Virus record (IMG/VR): IMGVR_UViG_3300046710_000151
Location: 12,584 to 76,583 of that record
Origin: a virus
Taxonomy: Duplodnaviria; Caudoviricetes
Length of the DNA: 64,000 nt
Direction: 5' to 3' (one strand)
Shown: piece after piece, positions 11,011 to 47,460 of the stretch
Layout of the letters: each line of letters starts with the position of its first letter
Numbering within the stretch: position 1 is the first letter of the stretch
Notes under the pieces: generated by a model
Database searches by the model: none
What the model was told of the DNA's origin: nothing
The model's input: the letters and a program-made list of their open reading frames with translations, nothing else
Position numbers and translations under genes: made by a program

Positions 11011-14000
11011 ATGATCCAAACAACCCGCAGGTGGTTCTTGAAATCGACGAATCGCAGGTCGTCCAAGGGACCGCGAATGCGAACACTGCGCTCGACAACT
11101 ACGACAAGAAAACCGCCGCGTCTGTGGGGAGAGCTGGGAAGGCGTTCGAAGAACACGGCGGTCTGGTGGTCAGGACCTCCGACCGGACGCGGACCGGCCT
11201 GAAGCGTCTGATCGAGACGTTCGAGCAACAAAATGCCGCCTTCGGAAGATCGCCGGTAGAGCAACTTGGCGCGAAATACGATCTACTCACCAAGCGCCTG
11301 GCGGGCAATGTGGATATGCTCAACCGGGCGGCCAAGGCCCACACCGAGTTGAGGGACAAGATGCTGGCGGCACAGAAGGCCGAGTCGTCCATCTTGAGCC
11401 CCCAGGGTCCTGCCGGGATGTCAATACGCGCCGTACGCGACATCGCGGAAGGGCGGATCTCCTACGGCATCGCTACTGGCGCTGGGGCCGTTGCTGGAAT
11501 GAGCGGTGCCCTTGGCGTCGTCACCGGTCTTGGTATCGCACTGGGAGCCCTGACGATTGCCGGATATAAGGCTGCCGAATCTCTCGCAAGAACTGCGGTG
11601 GAAATCCGCGACGTGCAGGCGCGTACCGGTTTCACTGTGCCCGAGGTAAACCAGTTTAGCTTTGCGGCCAAAGCCGTAGGCCAAGACATCGGCGTCTTTG
11701 AGAAGGGAATGCGCGGTCTTTCTCAGGCGGCGGAAGATCAATCCTCCGCTGGTGACAAGGCGCGATCCTGGATGCTCAAGTTCGGCATCGACATCCGTGG
11801 CGTACGCGACGGTTCAGTCAGCACCGCTGAGGTCATCAAGCAACTCGCCACTGGCCTAAATGGTATCCCCAACGTCCTTGAGCGCAACAAGGCCGGGATG
11901 GACATCTTCAAGCGCGCGTGGCTGGAGATGGCCCCGGCGATCTTGCACGTGGCGGACAATATCGAGACGGCCAAACAGCAAGGATTTGGCCCGAGCGAAA
12001 GCGACGTGGCGCGATTCATGGAGCTGAATCGGCAGATCAATATATACCAGGGCCATTGGGCCGATCTGATGCGCGATTTCAAGGAAGGACTGGTAATTGA
12101 GGTAAAACTGATTGGCAGTGGTGCAAAGTTGCTGCTGGGAGGCATGCCGGGCGAAGCTGGAATCAGCGACGCGGCTTACGAGAAATTTCAACGCGACTCC
12201 GCTCTATCGAATGAGATCAAGGCCGCCAAACCTGTCCTCGGGAACTGGGGTACACACGTTCCGCCAGATGAAATCGGACGTCTGACAATGGAGCGCACTC
12301 ACGCTCTGGCAAGGCTCGATTCTGGTACGGCTTTCGACCAAGAAAACGCGACCGGGCAGCAGGCGGACGATCTTAAGTATGCGGCTAAACTCCAGAAACA
12401 AATCGAGGATCTTCGCAAAGGGACCGATGCGGCAAGTTTGGCGCGCAAGAAGGCGGAGCGAGATTCGGAAGATGACGCTATCCGCGCTTACGAACGCAAC
12501 CAAGGCCCGGAACGCAAACTTAAAGAAGCTGAGAAACGGTTGAGTGGGCTCCCGGAGATTCAACTCAATGTGAGCAGTCCACAGGACAGGATAGACCGTA
12601 TAAAGGCAGAGCATGATGTCGAAAGCGCCAAGGCGGCGGTCAAAGCGTTTGACGAGCAGAAAGCCATTCGAGAGAAACTTCGCAAGGCGAGAATCACGGC
12701 GGCCGAAGAGGACGCGAATCCGTTTGGTATGCTCCCCACTGAACGCCTGCGGATGGAGAATGCGAAGGAACCAGGGGCAACCCCGGCTTCAATCGCCGAG
12801 TTCCGCAAGATCACCCAGCCCCAACTCGACAGGGATCAGCAAAAACGCGACGATGCCGCCACCACATTGGCCCGTCAGGAAGAAATCTCCACCGCCCGCG
12901 AACTGCTGCATATCAAGCAGGCGGTGGGCGCCGAAACGCCGATAACCGATTTGGGTAAGAATGGCGTGACCGCGCTTGACGTGGAGAAGAGCATCAACGA
13001 GCAATACGACCGGCGCGTGAAGGACGCGGCGGAACTGCGCCAGCAGGAAATTGGATGGGCAACGGAGAAGAAACTGGACCTCCGGGATGAGGCAAGTTGG
13101 ATCGCGCGCAATCTGGCGATTCAGAAAGCCTGGAGTACGGAAGACATTCAGAACGCCAAGTCCCGCGCCGATCAGGAGAAGCAAATCTCCGATCTCCATG
13201 ATAAGGACCGGGACAAAACGCGCCAGTTCAATGAGTCGATGAGCAAGGTCCTGGCCGGCGACAAAGAGGCGGAGATCAAGCACGCTGCCGATCTGGCCGC
13301 GCGCACGGCGGAGTTGCGATTCAGGGGCGATAACCCTGCTGCCGGGATCATGGCGGACCTGGCCATCAGGAAGCAGGAAGCGGTGGCGCTAAATGCCGAG
13401 ACGGAACGGCAGCTTGCGCAGGACTACGCCGACAAGCTCATCAATTACGACCAACTGAGATTGGGAAACGCCAAGGCGCTGAAGGACCTTCACGACGCGG
13501 ACGGCAAGGCTCAAGAGGAAGCGCAGTATAAGCTGCTGGAAATGCAGCAAAAGCAACTCGACGCCATCAAGGGCACAACGCAAGGGCTGCTGCACGGCTT
13601 ATTCACCTCGCCGTCCACCTTTGGAAAACAACTCGGCGACACGCTCCGCGACGCGGCATTGAAGCCGATAGAAAGCGGGTTGAGCGAGATAATCGCCAAA
13701 CAGTTGCATCCGGTGATCTTCGGCTCGACTGGCACGGGAGGCATCGCCGGCGGGATCTCCGCCAGGCTGCACGGCCTCTTCGGCACCTCGGGCACGGGAG
13801 GCATCGCGGATGTCCAACTGACACCGCTGGGCTATGTGCCGGTGGTTGTCATGGGCACCGAAGGCGGCTTGAGCCTCGCTGGGGCCTTCAGTCCCGCCGT
13901 CAGCACGTTCAGCCGGTTGACCGCGGAACTCGCTGCAAAACGAACCACCGCGCTCCCAAGCGCAGGGCTGGGCATTCTTTCGCCTTTCCTCAGCCTTATC

Positions 14001-37223: not shown

Positions 37224-37558
37224 CGGACATTCTGGCATTGCTTTTCGATATGCGAAATGGCGAGGTCGCGGCGGATATCGCGCGCCACTTCGACGAACTG
37301 AAAACAGCCGTACTGGAGACGCGCGGCAAGGGGAAACTCACCATCGAGTTGAACTTGGAGCCGAGCAAATGCGCGATCGGTGGCGCGGTGCTGGAAATCA
37401 AAGCCGAGCACTCATGCAAGGTGAAGAAACCAGAATTGGCTGTTGGCGCGGCGCATTTCTTCGTAACGGAACAGGGTGACTTGACGCGCGATGACCCTGC
37501 ACAAGCGGCGATGTTTGCGGAACCCAAGCAGGCTGGACAGGAGCAAAAACGTGGCTGA
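37220..37558 (+). CDS. YfdP-like partner of DUF2303
   Basis: GKGKLTIEL.LEP and FFVTE.G.L.R.DP.Q motifs. Confidence 0.7.
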   Translation: MTDILALLFDMRNGEVAADIARHFDELKTAVLETRGKGKLTIELNLEPSKCAIGGAVLEIKAEHSCKVKKPELAVGAAHFFVTEQGDLTRDDPAQAAMFAEPKQAGQEQKRG

Positions 37559-38402
37559 CGGAATCGAAACACCAACGGCGGAGGTGATCCGCGAACTTAC
37601 GACGCTCGGCATTGGTGCCGAGACCCCGGAGGGCGGCAACACGCCCTACGTAATAGTGCCCAGGGGGTGCGAAGTCAGGACCCTGGAAGCGCTCATCTAT
37701 AACGACCGGAGCGCACGGCCCAACCGAATCAAGCAAGCCATTGAGGTCTGGGACGCGGAGAGCTTCATCGCGTACTTCCTTGCCTTCCGCGACGCCAGTT
37801 CGCGTGTCTTTGCGGATGTGCAGGCGGCCACGGTAACGGCGATTCTGGACTATCACGAATTCCGGGAATCCGTCGAAGGTCAGGAAGTGAACGCGCCCCG
37901 CTGGGGATCTCACAAGGTCACGCTCGCCTTGAAGAAGTCCCCCGAATGGCTGCTTTGGATCGCCAGTAACAAAAAGACGATGGATCAGGACGCATTCGCC
38001 ACGTTCATCGAGGACAACAACCCGGACATCTTGGAACCCAACGCGGGCACCATGCGGGAAATCGCCAGCGATCTGCACGAAACCCACGAGATGACCTACG
38101 CGGGCACCACGAAGGCACCGAACGGCTCGCAGCGGTTGAACTACACCCAGGAGAACAAGAGCACCTTCGGGAAGTCCGATGCGAGCGTGCCCGAATCTTT
38201 CCGCGTGGGTATTCCGGTGTACGTAGGCGGCGGCCTTGTGTCTCTCGTAGCCCGACTTCGGTGGCGTGTGGCCGGCGGCAAGGCGAGTTTCTGGTACGAT
38301 CTGCTGCGCGCCGATGCGGCAGAGCGAGCGGCCTTTGACGCCACGCGGGCCACGGTCACAGATGCCATCGGGGTCCCGGTGATTAGCGGAAAGATCGGCT
38401 AG
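37551..38402 (+). CDS. DUF2303 (YfdQ-like) protein
   Basis: SFI.Y, AILDYH, SPEW..W, Q..FA.FIEDN and IPVY.GG motifs; start GTG 37551. Confidence 0.8.
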   Translation: MADGIETPTAEVIRELTTLGIGAETPEGGNTPYVIVPRGCEVRTLEALIYNDRSARPNRIKQAIEVWDAESFIAYFLAFRDASSRVFADVQAATVTAILDYHEFRESVEGQEVNAPRWGSHKVTLALKKSPEWLLWIASNKKTMDQDAFATFIEDNNPDILEPNAGTMREIASDLHETHEMTYAGTTKAPNGSQRLNYTQENKSTFGKSDASVPESFRVGIPVYVGGGLVSLVARLRWRVAGGKASFWYDLLRADAAERAAFDATRATVTDAIGVPVISGKIG

Positions 38403-39310: not shown

Positions 39311-39607
39311 ATGGCCGCCCCTGAAAGCGCCGCGGTCCTGGCCGCGTTGAGTCGCGCCGCACGGTTGCGCGATGCCATGGAGCGGTCCGATCCGTTGGTG
39401 CGTGCGGTTGCGGTGGCTCGGGAAGCGCTACGGCATTGCGATCCACGAAGCGCGGCGTACAAGGCTGGCATGGTGGAACTGCTGCGCCGAAGGTTCGGCG
39501 GTTCGCGTGGCGATTGTCCATACGTGGCTGGGTCGGCAGAGTTTGATGCCTACTGCTCAGGTATCGAGTGCGGGTGGGGCGTGTGGCGGGAATGCGAATC
39601 TTTATGA
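39311..39607 (+). CDS. hypothetical protein
   Basis: CPY..GS..FDAY..G motif. Confidence 0.5.
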   Translation: MAAPESAAVLAALSRAARLRDAMERSDPLVRAVAVAREALRHCDPRSAAYKAGMVELLRRRFGGSRGDCPYVAGSAEFDAYCSGIECGWGVWRECESL

Positions 39608-40899
39608 AATCTGATTTAACGGTTTTGCCTGTTCCGGCTGAATCCTTCCTTTCATCCGCCCACTCGGGCGGTCGAGGCGATCTTCAGTCGCCGCATACAG
39701 CGTCGGGGGCAGGCGATGAGGGCGAGCATGTGCGACAGCGCGTGCTCGCCATTAAATTGAATTGTGATGACGACACCTATCGTCTGGTGAAAGAGTTAGG
39801 ATGGCAGGCGGCGCGCTACCGCAATCTTTTTCTGCGGGCACGCTGGGCCGAAGCGAAACAGCTTTGCGTCGATCCGGTGAAGGCGGTTCCGCACGATGTC
39901 ACTAAGCACATCCGCGCTACCGAAAAGATGGATCTCGGCTGGTGTGTTTCTAGCGCTTGCGAACGCGAGTCCCAGGTGGCATGGCAGTGTCACTGTCGGC
40001 GCATCCTAGCGGGTGGGCCGCTGCCTGAATCGAGCCCAAATGCGGCCCTCACGATTCGCGGCGACAAGCGCCGCATGGAATCGGGCGTACAACTGGTGGA
40101 GACGGAGCCGGATCGGTTTGTCGCGCGGTTGCGGGTATTAAGTGAGAGATTGGCGGATGGTGCTATGCGCGCGGAGGGCTGCTGGATTGAGGTTCCGGTG
40201 GCACTGGGGACGGCGAAGGATTGGCAGATCGATCTGATCCGCCGTATGAGCGCGGGCGAAGTTCCGATCCTGAAGGGTGCCCTTGTCATTAAGCCGTTTC
40301 GGCATCAGGTGATCTTGCAACTATGCTATCCAGTCACCATTGCCCTGCCGCGATTTGGCAACCGCTGCGCCACCTTGGGTCCGGTCGGCCAGGGCGGCAG
40401 ACTGTTTCTGCGCACAGAATGCGAGACGCGCGATTACTCGGGGCGGCTGCACGCGATTCTGGACCGCAAGGAACACTGGGGCGGTATCCGGCGGCGGGTC
40501 ATGGCGCAGATCGGACGGCACAAAGGTGCCTCCCGGACCAAGCGGGAAGTGCTGGCGCGGATGACTTGGGCCGACTGGCTGAAGACCGAATTGCATCAGT
40601 GGACTTGCGAGATTGCGAAGTGGCTGGACTCGCAAGGCATCGCCAAATTGACCGTGATGGGCTTGGGCAATGCGGATTGGTCAATCTTCGAATTTACACG
40701 AATGCTCACGTACAAGTGTGAAGCGCTGGGAATCACTTTGACCAGCGAAGCGGACTTAGCCGATGTGGGAACTGAACGGTCGGTGAAGCAGGAGATTCAG
40801 CGTGAGCGGCGCAAAACAACCAAACGGGCCGGGGCGCTGCGTACGCTTACGGCCTCAGTCAACGCGCCGTTGGCCAATGATACGACAGGAAAAGGATAA
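39568..40899 (+). CDS. Cas12f/TnpB-like protein with degenerate RuvC (probable start GTG 39730, about 389 aa)
   Basis: Colinear resemblance to Cas12f1 blocks recalled from memory (RRILAGG.PLP, FVARLRVLS, RRMSAGE, LHQW..EIAK.....GI..L, W...EF..ML.YKCE..GI); RuvC-I reads ATLGPV and RuvC-II reads TVMGL; no CxxC finger or RuvC-III. Confidence 0.75.
   Translation: MRVGRVAGMRIFMKSDLTVLPVPAESFLSSAHSGGRGDLQSPHTASGAGDEGEHVRQRVLAIKLNCDDDTYRLVKELGWQAARYRNLFLRARWAEAKQLCVDPVKAVPHDVTKHIRATEKMDLGWCVSSACERESQVAWQCHCRRILAGGPLPESSPNAALTIRGDKRRMESGVQLVETEPDRFVARLRVLSERLADGAMRAEGCWIEVPVALGTAKDWQIDLIRRMSAGEVPILKGALVIKPFRHQVILQLCYPVTIALPRFGNRCATLGPVGQGGRLFLRTECETRDYSGRLHAILDRKEHWGGIRRRVMAQIGRHKGASRTKREVLARMTWADWLKTELHQWTCEIAKWLDSQGIAKLTVMGLGNADWSIFEFTRMLTYKCEALGITLTSEADLADVGTERSVKQEIQRERRKTTKRAGALRTLTASVNAPLANDTTGKG
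39608..39729 (+). ncRNA. putative tracrRNA-like RNA
   Basis: Anti-repeat TCCTTCCTTTCATCC (39643-57), hairpin CCGCCC/GGGCGG, and hairpin GGCGA-TCTTCAG-TCGCC whose loop complements the repeat end CTGAAG. Confidence 0.5.
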
Positions 40900-40904
40900 A
40901 GAAT

Positions 40905-41228
40905 ATGGACAATCAAACGACTACTGCATTAAACGATCTGGCACCGCAAGCGGTCGCTGAGATCAAGAACTATTTTCAATCGACGGTGGACAGCGAGGAC
41001 AGCGCCTACAAACGTGCCGACCTCGGGCTCAAGGTCTTGGGGCGGGTCAACGGCAACGATTCCAACCGAATCAAAGTGCTGGCACTCCAATTCCAGGTGG
41101 CCCGCATGATGGGCGTCAAGGGAGATATGCTGCGTCCGCTGTTGGCGGAACTGAATCCGGCTCTTGCGACTGCCGGGGTAATTGCTGCTCCTCAACCCGT
41201 TGTTGGGGCTTTGTCTCCAGCGGCATAG
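40905..41228 (+). CDS. 107-aa helical accessory protein of the Cas12f-like locus
   Basis: 5 nt after the Cas12f-like stop; the array begins right after its stop. Confidence 0.65.
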   Translation: MDNQTTTALNDLAPQAVAEIKNYFQSTVDSEDSAYKRADLGLKVLGRVNGNDSNRIKVLALQFQVARMMGVKGDMLRPLLAELNPALATAGVIAAPQPVVGALSPAA

Positions 41229-41852
41229 GACTTTGTGGAAGGAACTGAAGGGAACCGACACCAACCCCGGACCCACGGCGCAGCGAGTAGGGACATGGAA
41301 GGAACTGAAGGTTGTCGAGCCCGTGTGCTGGTTTGGGCGCAGCATGTAGGGAATGTAGAAGGAACTGAAGGGTGCAAGGCCCGTCTGCCTTATGCCGCCT
41401 GGGCGCAGCAAGCACGGAATGCGGAAGGAACTGAAGGCAATAAGGCTTTCACACTGCGTCGGCGCAGCAGGGAATGCGGAAGGAACTGAAGGACTGATGA
41501 ACTCCGCGCCCATTCGGGGCACGCCGGGGGAAGGAACTGAAGGGACTCGACAGCGCTCTCTACCGGCGCAGGAAGTAGGGAATTCGGAAGGAACTGAAGG
41601 GCATCGGGTCCGAACAGCCCGCGCCAGTCGAACGGAATGCGGAAGGAACTGAGGGTTGCAAGGCGGCAACACGGTAGGTTGCGGAACCGCCTCGAATGTG
41701 GAAGGAACTGAAGGAAGCATAGATCCGGTTCCGAATCGACTGAACCAGCCGTAGCGCAGCGAGTTGGTGAATAGGAAGGAACTGAAGGCGATACTCTTCA
41801 TCCGCGGCGTTCTTGGCGCAGCGGGTTAGGTGAATAAGGAAGGAACTGAAGG
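41229..41852 (+). CRISPR. non-canonical CRISPR-like array, 11 repeats
   Basis: GGAAGGAACTGAAGG at 41237, 41297, 41357(A), 41423, 41478, 41529, 41586, 41641(GAGGG end), 41700, 41774, 41838; degenerate 5' part GGCGCAGC..GGAAT; unique ~19-40-nt spacers. Confidence 0.75.
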
Positions 41853-41896
41853 TGGCCGCCGTACAGTCCGAGAAGGTTGGCACCGTGCCGTGAAGT

Positions 41897-41997
41897 CAGA
41901 GCCACCGCAGCGCCGGGGTCTTCCCCGGCGACGGTTGCGGCGGCGGGAGAAGGAATCGTGTCTGACTGACGGCGCAGAAATCGGCAAGCCTTCTCAG
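41897..41997 (+). repeat. CAGAGCC...CCTTCTCAG hairpin element (intergenic copy)
   Basis: Same layout as copies at 52980, 55173, 56385 and 57954. Confidence 0.7.
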
Positions 41998-42272
41998 TGA
42001 GTAAAGAACAAGTGGGAAAGAACATGATACATCCGGTCTACCAGCAGCGCATCGCAGTCGCAGTCGCAGCATCGCAAAAGCAGGCGGTCACACTCCGTGT
42101 GGACGGAGACGGCGACACGGCCTACGTGGTGTGGATGGACCGTAACCGGCATGTCATCGCGTCGGGATCGGAAAAGGGCATGAAAGCGCTGCTGCCGGAT
42201 GTGCAGGCGGAGTTCAAGCGGCAGATGGACGCACAGAAGGTGGAAGGTAGAGGCATGAAGGCATGGCAGTAA
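41997..42272 (+). CDS. hypothetical protein
   Basis: Overlaps the start of the next gene. Confidence 0.45.
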   Translation: MSKEQVGKNMIHPVYQQRIAVAVAASQKQAVTLRVDGDGDTAYVVWMDRNRHVIASGSEKGMKALLPDVQAEFKRQMDAQKVEGRGMKAWQ

Positions 42273-43216
42273 CATTTGAATCGAAAACACCGATCAGCCG
42301 GGGCGATGCGACATACCGAATCGCCACCCACGATATTGATATTGACGCGGAGAACAACGGGCGGCATGTTCTGCCGGACATAGCGTGGTTGGAGAAGTCC
42401 ATCGAGGACCGCGGTCAGGACGTTCCGTGCATCGTCACCAAGGATGGAAGCCGCGCCAGAATGGTTGAAGGCCACTCGCGTTGGAGAGCTATCGTCAATA
42501 TCAACAAGCGCCGCGCTCCCGAAAATCAGTTGTTGGTCTGGTGTGTTTATTCCAGAGGCAACCCGGTGGATGCGCTCATTACCGGATTTGTCACTAACCG
42601 GGAACGTAACTCGCTAACGCCTGTTGACGAAGGGTATTTCGTCAATCGCATGTTGAAGTTCGGTAAGACCATCGAAGAGATCGCCGCCATCTGCCACGAA
42701 GATGTGCCATGGTGCAAACAGCGACTCGCACTGGTTTCTCTGACCCCTGAAGCGCAGACCGCCGTATCGGCCGGCACTGTCAAGGTACCAGCTGCTGTTG
42801 CGCTGTCGAAGCTCGCTGCCGAGGAACAGCGGCGCTATCTGAAGAGCGGCGGGAGGATGACTGCGGCGGCGATCAAGCACTCATCGGCCCCGGTGATCGT
42901 CAGGGCGAAGAAGCTGGGACTACCGGAACTCAAGGAGATTCTGCGGGCCGTCGTGGAAGACGGAGAGTTACCGCCGGCATTCCGGGAAGAGATGCACTCC
43001 AAGAAGGGGATCGTGGCCGGTGAGCCGCTGCACACGTTCTGTGGGCTGATCCTTGACATGTTGAATCCGCCCAAGGCGGCGTCGCCGGCAAAAGAGAAAG
43101 GTAAGCCCGGTCCAAAGCGAAAGCGGAAGGCTGCGGAACCTCCGGTTGCGCAAGTGCAGCAACTGCTGGATGCTGTGGTTTCGGAACCGCATTACGAATC
43201 AATCGATCAAGTTTGA
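42263..43216 (+). CDS. ParB/Spo0J-like protein
   Basis: L..SI...GQ..P..V........EGH.RWRA and N.ER..L.P.DE followed by an HTH. Confidence 0.8.
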   Translation: MAVTFESKTPISRGDATYRIATHDIDIDAENNGRHVLPDIAWLEKSIEDRGQDVPCIVTKDGSRARMVEGHSRWRAIVNINKRRAPENQLLVWCVYSRGNPVDALITGFVTNRERNSLTPVDEGYFVNRMLKFGKTIEEIAAICHEDVPWCKQRLALVSLTPEAQTAVSAGTVKVPAAVALSKLAAEEQRRYLKSGGRMTAAAIKHSSAPVIVRAKKLGLPELKEILRAVVEDGELPPAFREEMHSKKGIVAGEPLHTFCGLILDMLNPPKAASPAKEKGKPGPKRKRKAAEPPVAQVQQLLDAVVSEPHYESIDQV

Positions 43217-44435: not shown

Positions 44436-44789
44436 ATGCAAACAACCCTAACGACCGCAATCTCATTTCTGCTGCTCTCCGCCGCGATTCTGCTCTGCAT
44501 TTCGCCTGAGGCCAAGCACTGGGCGGCAGAGGTCCTTCATCGCTTGGACGTTTTCCTATGCTCAGAGTTGGAAGCAAGGGCCAAAGCGCAAACGGCAGCG
44601 CGTTCCGCGTGGGATCGCGTCTACCGTGAGCAACGGGGCGCGTGTCCCTGGAACACGGCGGCTCCTTCGTCACACCTAATGGATGGCCTCGCGGCGGTGG
44701 ATTATGCGCGCGCCGGCACCGCTGGCGGGGTGCCGGATGAAAGGTTGGTTTATGACCGGCGGGACGCGCCTCCGGAGGCAGGGCTGTGA
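44436..44789 (+). CDS. hypothetical membrane-anchored protein
   Basis: N-terminal hydrophobic helix. Confidence 0.45.
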   Translation: MQTTLTTAISFLLLSAAILLCISPEAKHWAAEVLHRLDVFLCSELEARAKAQTAARSAWDRVYREQRGACPWNTAAPSSHLMDGLAAVDYARAGTAGGVPDERLVYDRRDAPPEAGL

Positions 44790-44825
44790 AGACCGACCCG
44801 CGCACTGGCCACCGCTACGCGAAAG

Positions 44826-45029
44826 GTGCATTCGATGCCGAACAAGGTTGATAGCCTGCTCCTGCTGGCCGATGCTCCGGTTCCAATGGAAACTATCCTG
44901 GGATGGAGCGTAGGGCAACTTCGGGCGGCGGGGGATTGGGCCTTGCGAACGTATCTGCGCGCGGCGGACAACGCGCATGTGCGTGTGCCAGTGAAGCCAG
45001 CGCATGTGATCGCGGGACAGGTGAAGTAG
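44826..45029 (+). CDS. hypothetical protein
   Basis: AGDWALR..L.A.DN motif. Confidence 0.45.
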   Translation: MHSMPNKVDSLLLLADAPVPMETILGWSVGQLRAAGDWALRTYLRAADNAHVRVPVKPAHVIAGQVK

Positions 45030-45032
45030 AAA

Positions 45033-45260
45033 ATGCCGAAGGAAGTGTTGAGTTCTGAGGAACGGTACGTCATGCGGATTACGTTCAAGGTGGCCATGAT
45101 TCGTGCGGCCGAGATCGTGGAAAGCATCACTGCTGGCGACGTTCTGGACATGCAAGCGCGGCTTTTGGCCAAAGGTATAAGTTTGGAGAACGTAGCGAAG
45201 CTTGACCGCGCAATGCTTGGGGCAACCCATTTGCGGGCCATTGCAGCGGACTTGGAGTAG
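45033..45260 (+). CDS. hypothetical protein
   Basis: RBS-spaced ORF. Confidence 0.45.
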   Translation: MPKEVLSSEERYVMRITFKVAMIRAAEIVESITAGDVLDMQARLLAKGISLENVAKLDRAMLGATHLRAIAADLE

Positions 45261-45263
45261 AAC

Positions 45264-45488
45264 ATGCCGACCCTGGTCAAAGCCGATGAGCGGCACTATA
45301 CACCCAAGGAAATCGCGCAGATTTTGCGCCTTGATCCCAAGTCGGTCCGGGATCTGTTTCGAAAAGAGGAAGGCGTGGTGCGTATCGGGAATCCAGACAG
45401 CACATTCCGGAAGAGAGCGCATACCACGCTGAGGATTCCAGAGAGCGTGTTTGAGCGGGTGCATAGAAGGATGAGTGTGAAGGGGTAA
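45264..45488 (+). CDS. excisionase-like HTH (MerR-like) protein
   Basis: HYTPKEIAQILRLDPKSVRDLF...GV.RIG. Confidence 0.7.
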   Translation: MPTLVKADERHYTPKEIAQILRLDPKSVRDLFRKEEGVVRIGNPDSTFRKRAHTTLRIPESVFERVHRRMSVKG

Positions 45489-45492
45489 AGGC

Positions 45493-45744
45493 ATGGACGA
45501 ACTGAATCCGAACCATCCGGTGACGCGCGAACTCCGTGAGCAGTGGTACAAGTTGTGCGCCATCCTCCTGTGGAAGTCTGGAGCCACTGAAGTCCAGATC
45601 ACCAGCGACGATATTGACGGGTTTATGAAAAGCGGCCTGGCCAATATCACGATGCACCCAAAAGACGACGTAATCACGCTGGGGCTGGTGAGTGATGCGG
45701 AAACCGTGCGGTTGTCGCGCAAGGAAGGGGGATTGCCAATATGA
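45493..45744 (+). CDS. hypothetical protein
   Basis: RBS AAGG; coupled to the next gene. Confidence 0.5.
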   Translation: MDELNPNHPVTRELREQWYKLCAILLWKSGATEVQITSDDIDGFMKSGLANITMHPKDDVITLGLVSDAETVRLSRKEGGLPI

Positions 45745-46289
45745 GTGAGAAGGCCGAAGGCTTTTTGGAAGTTGGCCTGAATGAGCAAGGCGAGATCGTG
45801 GTGAACCATCCTGATCTGAAGCCTGACTCCAACGGCGTGGGGCATATCGTGTTCTCCTCCGTGCAGGCACGCGAACTGGCCCGTTTACTGCTCAAGCACG
45901 CAACGCAATCCGAAAGGGAGGCAATGGAACGTATCTCAGTGGAACGGTACAAGGCGGCTGAGGCGATTCCCGTGGATCGTGATTGCCGCGTGTTGACCGA
46001 CGGCTCGCCGGTCACCGAAGACCACCGCGAGATAAACCCCGCCACCGGCCAGCAAAAAGGCTACGTGGTGCTCTGCGAGGCGGAACGTCGTAAGGGATTC
46101 GTACGGCCGGTTCGCAGAGCATACCTACACAAGACTTGCGGCTCAGTCACGACAATGGGCCTGACATTGGCGGAAACCTACGCTCGCGATCCGACGTTCT
46201 ACAGCGGCACGTTCTGCTGCGCGTGTAGGGCTCACTTCCCGCTCGATCAATTCGTGTGGGAAAGGACCAATGAACTAGTAGGCTCCTAG
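45741..46289 (+). CDS. conserved phage protein with Cys motif
   Basis: GFVRPVRR.Y.H..CG..T.M....AETYARDP.FY.GTFC..C..HFP. Confidence 0.65.
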   Translation: MSEKAEGFLEVGLNEQGEIVVNHPDLKPDSNGVGHIVFSSVQARELARLLLKHATQSEREAMERISVERYKAAEAIPVDRDCRVLTDGSPVTEDHREINPATGQQKGYVVLCEAERRKGFVRPVRRAYLHKTCGSVTTMGLTLAETYARDPTFYSGTFCCACRAHFPLDQFVWERTNELVGS

Positions 46290-46296
46290 AAGCCCG

Positions 46297-47460
46297 TTAT
46301 CGATGCCACATCCCCATCACCTCGCGTATGAGCATATCGGCTCTGCTTCGGACCCACGGCGCATAATGCTGCTCGGTAGTCTTGATCGAACTGTGCCCCA
46401 AGAGCATCTGCACGGTTTCGAGCGACCGCCCGGCTTCCAACAGCCGCACGGCGAAGGTATCGCGGAATCGATGGGCGTGGATGTTAAAAACGCCGGAAAG
46501 CGTGGAGAGCGGGCACAGGTACGAAGAATAGAAGCCGTTGGCGATAGACCGCGCATCGGTCTGGTACCGGGAAGCGACGGGAGGAATGAACGCGCCAGCC
46601 TCGCTCAATCGCGGTGCCTGCCGGATGACTTCGGCTACATCGGGCGGCAAGGGGCACATCACCCACTCCCCGGTCTTGGTCTGGTAGGTCTCATAGACCG
46701 CCACGCCATGGCCGCCGAGCGTGAGCGTTCGGATCTTGCGCGGCTCAAACAGCACGGCATCGCTGGCGCGCAGGCCGGTCCATCGCAAGACCAGCAGCAG
46801 AGCACGGGCGGTTTCGGGATGGGCACTCCACAAGCCACCGAAATGCCGGCGGTTGCCAAACTGCTCAGCCGTGGCGAAGATCCTGGCTTCCTCTTCGATC
46901 GTGAACGGCAAGGTCGGCTCCCGGTTGTCACTGGGTTTCAGCAGTCCCGAGGCCGGATTGTCACCGATCCATTTCCGGGTAAGGCAGAATTTGAAGAAGG
47001 AACGTGCCAAGTCGATGCGGCTCCGGTGCGTCGTGCTGGCATAATCCCAGGTGCTCACCCACTTGTCCAGGAGTCCGAGATTCAATTCGGAGAGGTACTG
47101 GAGACCGGCATGGGCGCACCAGGCAGCGAGAGAGGCCGTCATGGCGCCGTGGACCTGGCGTACCGTGCGCGGCTGGCGCTTGGCGGCCAACAAGGCGTTT
47201 TTCCAGGCATCGAGGGCGCTGGCGATTTCAACGCGCGGGACTTCGGGCGTACCCAGTTCGATAGCGCGTTTCAGGTGCTCGGCAACCTGCCAGCTTGTGG
47301 TGTTCAGCGAATGCCGATGGTAGGCGCCGTGGGGATCGAGGCCGATCAACCAGACCGGGCAGCCGCAACGCCGATGTGTGCGGAGCTCGCCCGTGGTCAT
47401 GCCCTTGGCGCGCAGCTTCTTTTCGCAGATTCTAAGGTGACGGCAGTAGAGGGAGAGCAT
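46297..47460 (-). CDS. int: tyrosine integrase/recombinase
   Basis: TGLR.SDA, HRFRDTFA and LLGHSSIKTTEQHY catalytic motifs; N-terminal MLSLYCRH..C...RRCGCPVW arm. Confidence 0.9.
   Translation of the reverse strand: MLSLYCRHLRICEKKLRAKGMTTGELRTHRRCGCPVWLIGLDPHGAYHRHSLNTTSWQVAEHLKRAIELGTPEVPRVEIASALDAWKNALLAAKRQPRTVRQVHGAMTASLAAWCAHAGLQYLSELNLGLLDKWVSTWDYASTTHRSRIDLARSFFKFCLTRKWIGDNPASGLLKPSDNREPTLPFTIEEEARIFATAEQFGNRRHFGGLWSAHPETARALLLVLRWTGLRASDAVLFEPRKIRTLTLGGHGVAVYETYQTKTGEWVMCPLPPDVAEVIRQAPRLSEAGAFIPPVASRYQTDARSIANGFYSSYLCPLSTLSGVFNIHAHRFRDTFAVRLLEAGRSLETVQMLLGHSSIKTTEQHYAPWVRSRADMLIREVMGMWHR

Follow-up and report, generated by a model that had tools for sequence, protein, structure and literature searches.

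A decayed guide array beside a predicted nuclease-dead Cas12f-like effector in a phage genome, and a covarying tracr-like element within the effector gene

The DNA described here is a stretch of 64,000 nucleotides (nt), hereafter the window, which spans positions 12,584 to 76,583 of the IMG/VR record IMGVR_UViG_3300046710_000151 and derives from a peat-soil phage of the Caudoviricetes. All genes between ~37.5 and 44.3 kb of the window are on the + strand, and among them lies a compact locus made up of an effector gene whose product is predicted to be a dead relative of Cas12f, a gene for a small helical protein, and an irregular array of repeats and spacers that resembles a CRISPR array. Within the 5′ coding region of the effector gene is an element resembling a tracrRNA (trans-activating CRISPR RNA), parts of which are complementary to the repeats. 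The features of the locus are as follows, in window coordinates.

39604-40899, + strand: effector gene, 431 amino acids (aa), starting at the ATG at 39604 (database protein P0003); the mechanical open reading frame (ORF) starts at the GTG at 39568 and encodes 443 aa
39625-39716, + strand: tracr-like scaffold element, overlapping effector codons ~8-38; its outer limits are approximate
39643-39649, + strand: anti-repeat segment A, TCCTTCC, the reverse complement of the repeat-end GGAAGGA
39676-39692, + strand: hairpin GGCGA-TCTTCAG-TCGCC, whose loop (39681-39687) is anti-repeat segment B and complements ACTGAAG(G)
40905-41228, + strand: 107-aa all-helical protein, presumed to be an accessory subunit; its stop codon lies inside the first repeat
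41216-41852, + strand: guide array, with 11 repeat units (each ~35-37 nt) and spacers of ~15-38 nt
41237, 41297, 41357, 41423, 41478, 41529, 41586, 41641, 41700, 41774 and 41838, + strand: starts of the invariant 3′ 15-mer of the repeat
41853-41885, + strand: last spacer, a unique sequence after repeat 11 and before a structured element at ~41897; its 3′ limit is uncertain

The key feature of the array is the 15-mer GGAAGGAACTGAAGG, of which a DNA motif search located 11 copies on the + strand between 41237 and 41852. Nine of these are exact and two carry one mismatch (the copy at 41357 begins with A and that at 41641 ends GAGGG), where shuffled sequence leads one to expect 0.13 matches and none of 100 shuffles reached 11; a search of the whole 76.6-kb viral record found no copy elsewhere. 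The periods of 60, 60, 66, 55, 51, 57, 55, 59, 74 and 64 nt are exactly those reported in a first-pass annotation of this DNA, and its description of a variable 5′ part, unique spacers and no leader is likewise borne out by alignment of the units and by a promoter and terminator scan, which gave nothing above shuffle expectation and no promoter-like leader. The 3′ 15 nt of the repeat are invariant, and the middle part has drifted and contains insertions and deletions; most copies are preceded by a semi-conserved GGCGCAGC and by GGAATGC or GTGAATA blocks, and the sequence G(G/T)CGCAGC marks the 5′ end of 7 of the 11 units (2-5, 7, 10 and 11). All spacers are unique but range from ~15 to 38 nt in length, and the near-identical direct repeats of constant length that are typical of canonical arrays are not present. 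Tandem Repeats Finder, a general repeat finder, detects only 1.9 copies in the array, which fits the earlier expectation that standard finders would probably miss it. The folding of the whole array as + strand RNA is not distinctive (z = +1.2), and scans for Rfam families and tRNAs yielded no matches.

Homologous loci, which were taken from IMG/VR, JGI and ENA metagenomes together with long contigs, place this array in a broader series. Every locus with enough flanking sequence contains an array on the same strand with the same repeat end. Regular arrays, with repeats of 35-37 nt, spacers of ~36 nt and periods of 71-75 nt, occur in L018, L020, L022/L023, L024, L026, L132 and L133, and minimal arrays, in which only the 3′ end of the repeat (11-17 nt) is retained at periods of 27-75 nt, occur in L009-L011, L013 and L015-L017. 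When aligned with canonical 36-nt repeats from L018, L020, L022, L024, L026, L046, L132 and L133, the units in the window fall into register, and this homology to repeats that reside beside homologous effectors upholds the first-pass assignment of the region to the CRISPR type. To judge from these alignments, the window array is a decayed array, at an intermediate stage between the regular and the handle-only forms. Decay has occurred repeatedly, because a close relative, L024, whose effector is 64% identical to that of the window, keeps a regular array. Two copies of a window-specific 15-mer at array spacing were found nowhere else in IMG/VR. The nearest effectors are ~60-64% identical, and the nearest relative has no spacer in common with the window; the only other sample that contains this DNA, a second peat sample, holds an identical phage and hence is uninformative on spacer turnover. 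These comparisons speak neither for nor against the first-pass proposal that the guides are fixed and regulatory. No Cas1, Cas2 or Cas4 was found in the 76.6-kb record (73% complete), in keeping with the proposal that the array is no longer fed by Cas1-Cas2, and no adaptation genes were found near three homologs on contigs of 39-71 kb.

Further arrangements of repeats are seen in individual loci. Identical spacers recur in L046 (10330-10400 and 12212-12358), where one duplicated block takes in the 3′ end of the small-protein gene, which suggests either segmental tandem duplication as a mode of array growth or an assembly artefact at the contig end. A second small array, inverted so that its copies are on the - strand, lies upstream of the effector in L017 (1767-1948), and in L011 and L016 arrays are situated on both sides of the effector gene. 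In L009, solitary full repeat ends (GGTGAGAGGAACTGAAGG) reside on the + strand at 2700, 2916, 3644/3670 and 4309; these positions are in intergenic gaps of the operon upstream of the effector, and each is separated by 2-45 nt from the start codon that follows. Similar single repeat ends precede the small-protein and integrase genes of L010 (7712 and 8016), and the window has none. Each of these repeat ends might act as a guide unit on its own, mark a processing site or be a ribosome-binding mimic.

The tracr-like element in the effector gene is conserved at the nucleotide level in an alignment of 15 loci, and in the window its predicted folding is more stable than that of shuffled sequences (z = -4.4). 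Within this element lies an anti-repeat in two parts, complementary to the 3′ 15-18 nt of the repeat, and the two sides covary, with at least eight variants among the 15 loci. The covarying pairs are listed below.

Segment A TCTCCTCG, repeat CGAGGAGA
Segment A TCCTCTCACC, repeat GGTGAGAGGA
Segment A TCCCCTCCG, repeat CGGAGGGGA
Segment A CCCTCTCAA, repeat TTGAGAGGG
Segment A TCCTCTCCGA, repeat TCGGAGAGGA
Segment A TCCCTCTC, repeat GAGAGGGA
Loop B CTTCAG, repeat CTGAAG
Loop B CCTCAG, repeat CTGAGG
Loop B CCTCAA, repeat TTGAGG
Loop B TCTCAA, repeat TTGAGA (array predicted from the loop)
Loop B CTCCAAT, repeat ATTGGAG (array predicted from the loop)

The last two pairs were obtained as predictions: no array was known at first in L020 and L026, whose loops TCTCAA and CTCCAAT predicted the repeat ends TTGAGA and ATTGGAG, and these were then found, recurring at periods of 71-73 nt. 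L046, L132 and L133, which were added later, are also consistent with the complementarity between repeat and anti-repeat. Across loci, the complementarity of the element to the repeat of its own locus averages 13.5 of 17 nt, compared with 7.9 for other repeat classes and 4.4 for shuffled elements. The hairpin stem that presents loop B likewise varies in a compensatory manner (GGCTG/CAGCC, GGTGA/TCACC, GGCCC/GGGCC), and RNAalifold identifies two stem pairs that are changed on both sides, in 5-6 sequences. In one clade, a long insertion in the hairpin holds a third anti-repeat-like segment that tracks the local repeat, as in L010 (CAGTTCTCC versus GGAGAACTG). A contiguous anti-repeat of 11-16 nt, with G:U pairs allowed and at most two mismatches, was not found, the anti-repeat being split. 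By these computational comparisons, the element appears to contain an anti-repeat of the tracrRNA type, and its two-part covariation lends good support to the first-pass suggestion that the repeat has been kept under selection only where it pairs with a tracr-like RNA.

Several features of the element bear on the level at which it is conserved. Four-fold degenerate sites within it are frozen (CGA in 10 loci, GGC in 10 and CCG in 9), whereas third-position identity elsewhere in the effector gene averages 0.35 over 71 sites (p<5e-5 for the frozen sites). In 11 of 11 loci, the number of nucleotides that separate the element from the conserved protein core is divisible by three; with an ATG ahead of segment A, the element is likely also translated in most loci. 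An inserted array separates the element from the effector ORF in L011, L016 and L046, such that the element is followed directly by handle and guide in an arrangement resembling a natural single-guide RNA. The element is non-coding in L046 and L132, and the L132 copy is located in the 5′ untranslated region. Because synonymous sites are frozen and the element can be separated from the ORF or be non-coding, its conserved function appears to be exerted at the RNA level. In the corresponding protein segment (window 39604-39730, residues 1-42), the motif AES..RG.L(Q/H)..PHTA is kept in frame even at 31% overall identity, and the N-terminal stretch of the effector is modelled as disordered, with a predicted local distance difference test (pLDDT) score below 50.

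The effector itself belongs to no Pfam or PHROG family, and its only NCBIfam match is a weak one to guided_TnpB (E 0.0024). An AlphaFold2 model computed on the family alignment (pLDDT 79.5) was compared with the PDB using Foldseek, which returned AsCas12f (E 4e-17), the dCas12f structure 9n9c (E 4e-13), TnpB (E 2e-8), Cas12m (E ~1e-7) and also Cas12k, with Cas12f structures occupying all of the top 15 matches. An hmmsearch comparison of the family profile with PDB sequences likewise recovered AsCas12f (E 1e-5) and, marginally, 9n9c (E 0.08). According to the model, the protein has the TnpB/Cas12f fold, with WED, REC and RuvC core portions. The RuvC D-E-D triad is not intact: in the profile alignment with AsCas12f, the RuvC-I aspartate aligns to the invariant glycine of an ATLGP motif and the RuvC-II glutamate aligns to valine or methionine. 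The effector retains, as YK..G..V, the strand that comes before the zinc-finger TNB domain in Cas12f, and this is followed by a long basic helix that terminates the protein, with no zinc finger and no RuvC-III, and no Pfam match to the TNB domain (PF07282) was obtained. Because the RuvC acids have been lost and a basic helix takes the place of the zinc finger and RuvC-III, the effector is predicted to be a dead Cas12f-like protein that binds DNA without cutting it.

A word-indexed search returned 25 metagenomic homologs of the effector, and an exhaustive profile search returned 142 cluster representatives among 1.84 billion proteins, by which measure the family is rare; no relatives were found in 185,579 species genomes. 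The most distant matches of the profile search are genuine Cas12f and TnpB proteins of the kind OrfB_IS605 + Cas12f1-like_TNB. Those that contain PF07282 match the family profile no further than position ~367, the point at which their TNB domain sets in.

Between effector and array, homologs of the 107-aa protein are encoded in 15 fetched loci, and a gene of ~100 aa occupies the same position in three long contigs, such a protein being present in every complete locus. The AlphaFold2 model of the 107-aa protein (pLDDT 80) contains helices only, and searches of Pfam, PHROG, NCBIfam and PDB folds gave no match. A complex prediction for effector and small protein scored 0.00, which counts neither for nor against binding. 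In other loci, integrase, RecT or type IV secretion system genes lie nearby. In L133 (1-7200 and 8001-9950), the effector, the small protein and a regular five-unit array directly follow a type IV secretion operon encoding VirB4, TrbL, VirB8, CagX/VirB9 and TrbI/VirB10; thus L133 is on a conjugative element, and the module is not restricted to phages.

Taken with these comparisons, the array is likely to be the multi-guide locus of a self-contained, phage-borne and nuclease-dead RNA-guided system related to type V-F. In the mechanism that we infer, which extends to transcription, processing, RNA pairing, DNA binding, a repressive outcome and a role for the small protein, an operon consisting of the scaffold element and effector, the small protein and the array would be transcribed on the + strand. 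Each array unit would then give rise to a CRISPR RNA (crRNA) with a 5′ handle of ~15 nt (GGAAGGAACTGAAGG) followed by the guide; the conserved repeat end abuts each spacer on the spacer's 5′ side, as in type V crRNAs. Two short helices would join the handle to a scaffold RNA that derives from the effector transcript at its 5′ end, the pairing sites being segment A (39643-49) and the hairpin loop (39681-87). The Cas12f-fold protein, possibly with the 107-aa protein as an accessory, would bind this RNA pair and subsequently guide-complementary DNA, without cutting it, so that targets outside the phage genome, such as host genes or rival mobile elements, may be silenced or blocked. Since only the handle and guide would be needed, the system could dispense with the rest of the repeat (its 5′ and middle portions) and with the distal portions of the spacers, which could have drifted or been deleted, and erosion of this kind may account for the irregular periods.

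A number of points weigh against this reading. The element also reads, in most loci, as an in-frame N-terminal peptide, which may have a role there. Segment A, which lies 5′ of segment B, would pair with the handle's 5′ half and segment B with its 3′ half; since this order differs from that of the continuous Cas12f1 duplex, the RNA architecture must differ as well. The loop of the clade with long insertions reads CTTCAC and affords only 5-6 base pairs, and details of the pairing vary between loci. Transcription and processing of the array are among the steps that we infer, and because no target has been found for any spacer, DNA binding and its outcome rest on analogy, which was drawn with Cas12m, TldR and dCas12f.

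The search for targets took several forms. Comparison of the window spacers with their own phage (76.6 kb) gave chance-level matches only, and an anchored-prefix test was null (8.5 versus 8.6 nt). A total of 196 spacers produced no convincing match to any of the fetched loci, and searches of spacers against GenBank phages returned E values of ~1-8 only. Five window spacers had no exact match in IMG/VR as 20-mers, and one, as a 22-mer, had no match in a prokaryote genome collection. Most likely, the guides are directed at unsampled DNA of the host or of rival elements. Two individual matches were noted in the window. At 46349-46363, a 15-nt exact match, CGGACCCACGGCGCA, covers the junction of spacer 1 with the beginning of repeat 2; its length exceeds that of the chance matches elsewhere, but it includes repeat sequence. 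At 45115-45132 on the - strand, within the ORF at 44676-45845, the second spacer of the L011 array matches 17 of 18 nt from spacer position 1; this is the best match across loci, with an E value of 0.005 per query that is not significant given 196 spacers tested. No RNA runs are listed among the public runs that hold this DNA.

Other explanations of the complementarity between repeat and element have also to be considered. The array transcripts could serve a regulatory purpose, base-pairing with the effector mRNA at its 5′ end so as to adjust, as feedback, how well that mRNA is translated or how stable it is, or to direct RNase processing of the operon, in which case the effector would bind crRNAs without the element as a scaffold. 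In most loci the anti-repeat does lie 10-60 nt downstream of the effector start codon, the solitary repeat ends of L009 are found in intergenic gaps just before other genes, and cr-like RNAs that autoregulate cas genes are known (10.1101/2023.03.03.530964). However, the element of L011, L016 and L046 is outside the translation-initiation region of the effector, upstream of the inserted array, and characterised proteins of the Cas12f/TnpB fold need a scaffold of ~100 nt, for which no other conserved RNA was found in these loci; regulation of this kind is therefore an unlikely explanation. The combination of a phage-borne locus, a catalytically dead protein and many copies of a repeat end might also be read as an anti-defence decoy, in which the dead effector and handle RNAs absorb or misdirect the tracrRNA, crRNA or effector of a host type V-F system, and phage RNA mimics of Cas9 guide RNAs are documented (10.64898/2026.06.03.729762, 10.64898/2026.06.01.729453). 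That possibility seems distinctly slight, as unique spacers are kept beside every handle, diverse spacers fill the long arrays of canonical relatives, the covarying scaffold confers on each lineage a private specificity rather than mimicry of a host repeat, and the system also occurs on a conjugative element.

Readings in which the 15-mers do not act as guide RNA handles are weaker again. Some centromeres consist of tandem short motifs with variable spacing, and the gene for a ParB-like protein (42263-43216) lies 400 nt downstream, so the 15-mers could be binding sites for a protein at the DNA level, either iterons or a centromere. Nevertheless, in every locus the motif is linked to the Cas12f-like gene and not to ParB, canonical CRISPR repeats have a homologous 3′ end, and the motif covaries with a complementary sequence on the same strand 1.5 kb away, which would be unexpected for a protein-binding site; a partition centromere or set of iterons was rejected on this linkage and covariation and is highly improbable. 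Hardly any weight at all attaches to the region being a translated repeat peptide or a TIGR-Tas array. GGA ACT GAA GG, an 11-mer that phage collagen-like genes also contain, does encode Gly-Thr-Glu-Gly, but a scan of IMG/VR for two such 11-mers, which serves as a negative control, returned ~100 unrelated collagen-like genes, all with periods that are multiples of 9. The periods of the array, such as 55, 59, 74 and 64, break every reading frame, and no single + strand ORF spans it, by which a collagen-like product is ruled out, as is the EGTEG-repeat peptide that the first-pass annotation had named as one finding that would refute it. TIGR arrays are also poorly conserved and phage-borne (PMC12045711), but here the neighbouring protein has the Cas12f fold and no Nop domain, and the units lack both the dual-spacer 36-nt and the stem-loop architecture of TIGR, so that TIGR-Tas too is ruled out.

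If the array is regarded as the guide locus of a dead Cas12f-like system, its closest counterpart is Cas12f1 (type V-F), which provides the best structural match and profile-level homology for the effector. Like the canonical sequences of the present family, V-F repeats are purine-rich, ~36 nt long and without an internal hairpin, with the guide 3′ of the repeat, and in both the 3′ end of the repeat is predicted to pair with a separate scaffold RNA. Unlike Cas12f1, the effector described here appears from its sequence to lack the RuvC acids and the zinc-finger TNB/RuvC-III module, and so falls outside Cas12f proper on both catalytic and zinc-finger grounds. The anti-repeat also differs in being split, in residing inside the 5′ coding region of the effector, and in having its segments in the opposite order to a continuous duplex. 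Arrays decayed to handles only, a partner of ~100 aa, carriage by phages and a conjugative element, and the absence of adaptation genes further set the present system apart. A close evolutionary parallel to the handle-only repeats is found in a census of TnpB and Cas12, which describes, as an evolutionary scenario, the minimisation of CRISPR arrays to a ‘half DR’ (PMC10691335).

Similar comparisons extend to the dead derivatives of this fold. The dCas12f proteins, which include sigmaE activators and a briefly described CRISPR-associated cluster (PMC13472631), share the Cas12f fold, a truncated C terminus in which part of the RuvC site is gone and an expected activity of RNA-guided DNA binding, and the fold match to 9n9c is strong (E 4e-13), although similarity at the sequence level is marginal (profile E 0.08, as above). 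Domain searches of the ten flanking ORFs detected no sigma factor or helix-turn-helix (HTH) neighbour. In addition, dCas12f-sigmaE systems use a single RNA that combines scaffold and guide, no tracrRNA having been found for them, and reside in Bacteroidota chromosomes, whereas the present system has a separate scaffold, multi-guide arrays and a different small partner and is found in mobile elements from peat and soil. TldR proteins are likewise miniature proteins of the TnpB/Cas12 fold with a dead or truncated RuvC, sometimes encoded by phages, and use short guides to repress transcription (bioRxiv 10.1101/2023.11.30.569447, PMC13418256). Each has one omega-RNA-like guide and a fixed target such as fliC, in contrast to the 11-30 different guides per locus, CRISPR-derived arrays and trans scaffold seen here, for which no target was found. 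With no sigma or HTH neighbour, multi-guide arrays and a separate scaffold, the system is outside both the sigmaE and the TldR groups.

Cas12m (type V-M) interferes by binding DNA rather than cleaving it (PMC11013384), and by analogy offers a precedent for a CRISPR-associated type V effector that may act in this manner. It differs from the present effector in its size (~600 aa), its retained zinc finger, its canonical arrays and its independence of a tracrRNA, and its fold match is weaker. TIGR-Tas systems resemble the locus in that their guide arrays are phage-borne and so weakly conserved in the repeat that CRISPR finders fail to detect them (bioRxiv 10.64898/2026.09.09.750476), and TIGR arrays occasionally occur near ParB genes (PMC12045711). 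Their effector is nonetheless built on a Nop domain, each unit contains two spacers, and there is no homology with the system described here.

The surroundings of the locus in the window are as follows. Immediately 3′ of the array are a structured spacer of 170 nt, a small ORF and then the ParB-like gene mentioned above (phrog_1033, E 7e-21), and a DUF2303 protein is encoded upstream of the system (37491-38402; PF10065, E 3e-52). Both are ordinary genes of a phage early region, and neither is kept beside the system in other loci. Structured elements of ~100 nt recur at gene ends, at 41897-41990, ~52980, 55173, 56385 and 57955, with a partial copy at ~58631; they share CAGAGCC, a covarying outer stem, an inner GCGCC..GGCG hairpin, GGCGGCGG and a CCTTCTCAG tail. 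The copy immediately 3′ of the array may bound the array transcript. A tandem repeat of the hexamer GCAGTC (4.7 copies) resides at 42044-42069, where the next ORF after the array starts.

Searches of the literature, with the unnamed V-U* groups of the census outside the comparison, found no description of a scaffold with a split anti-repeat embedded in an effector gene, and the continuum to handle-only arrays, the conserved small partner and the carriage by phages and a conjugative element were likewise not found described. It could be, although as a whole the claim is put forward tentatively and with some doubt, that these loci represent a clade, not described before, of DNA-binding systems that are programmable, multi-guide and borne by phages and conjugative elements, in which the scaffold is dual-coded in the 5′ coding region of the effector, the small partner gives the dead effector its output, and arrays shrink over evolution to handles of 11-17 nt with short guides and thereby escape CRISPR finders.

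Only of late have nuclease-dead derivatives of TnpB and Cas12f come to be seen as natural RNA-guided transcription factors, and to these the locus adds a lineage that is borne by mobile elements, has a conserved small partner, and possesses multi-guide arrays instead of a single guide. The series of loci from canonical to handle-only arrays shows what selection keeps once acquisition stops, and also why such arrays escape standard annotation. With a scaffold RNA in the effector coding sequence, the natural covariation of the two pairing segments provides a ready-made mutational map. If functional, the combination of ~430 aa, a scaffold of ~100 nt and handles of 15 nt would be among the most compact of multiplexable DNA-binding platforms and would constitute a very compact natural module resembling multiplexed CRISPR interference. 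If the proposal is true, it would represent a third route out of Cas12f nuclease immunity, beside the sigmaE activators and the TldR-type repressors.

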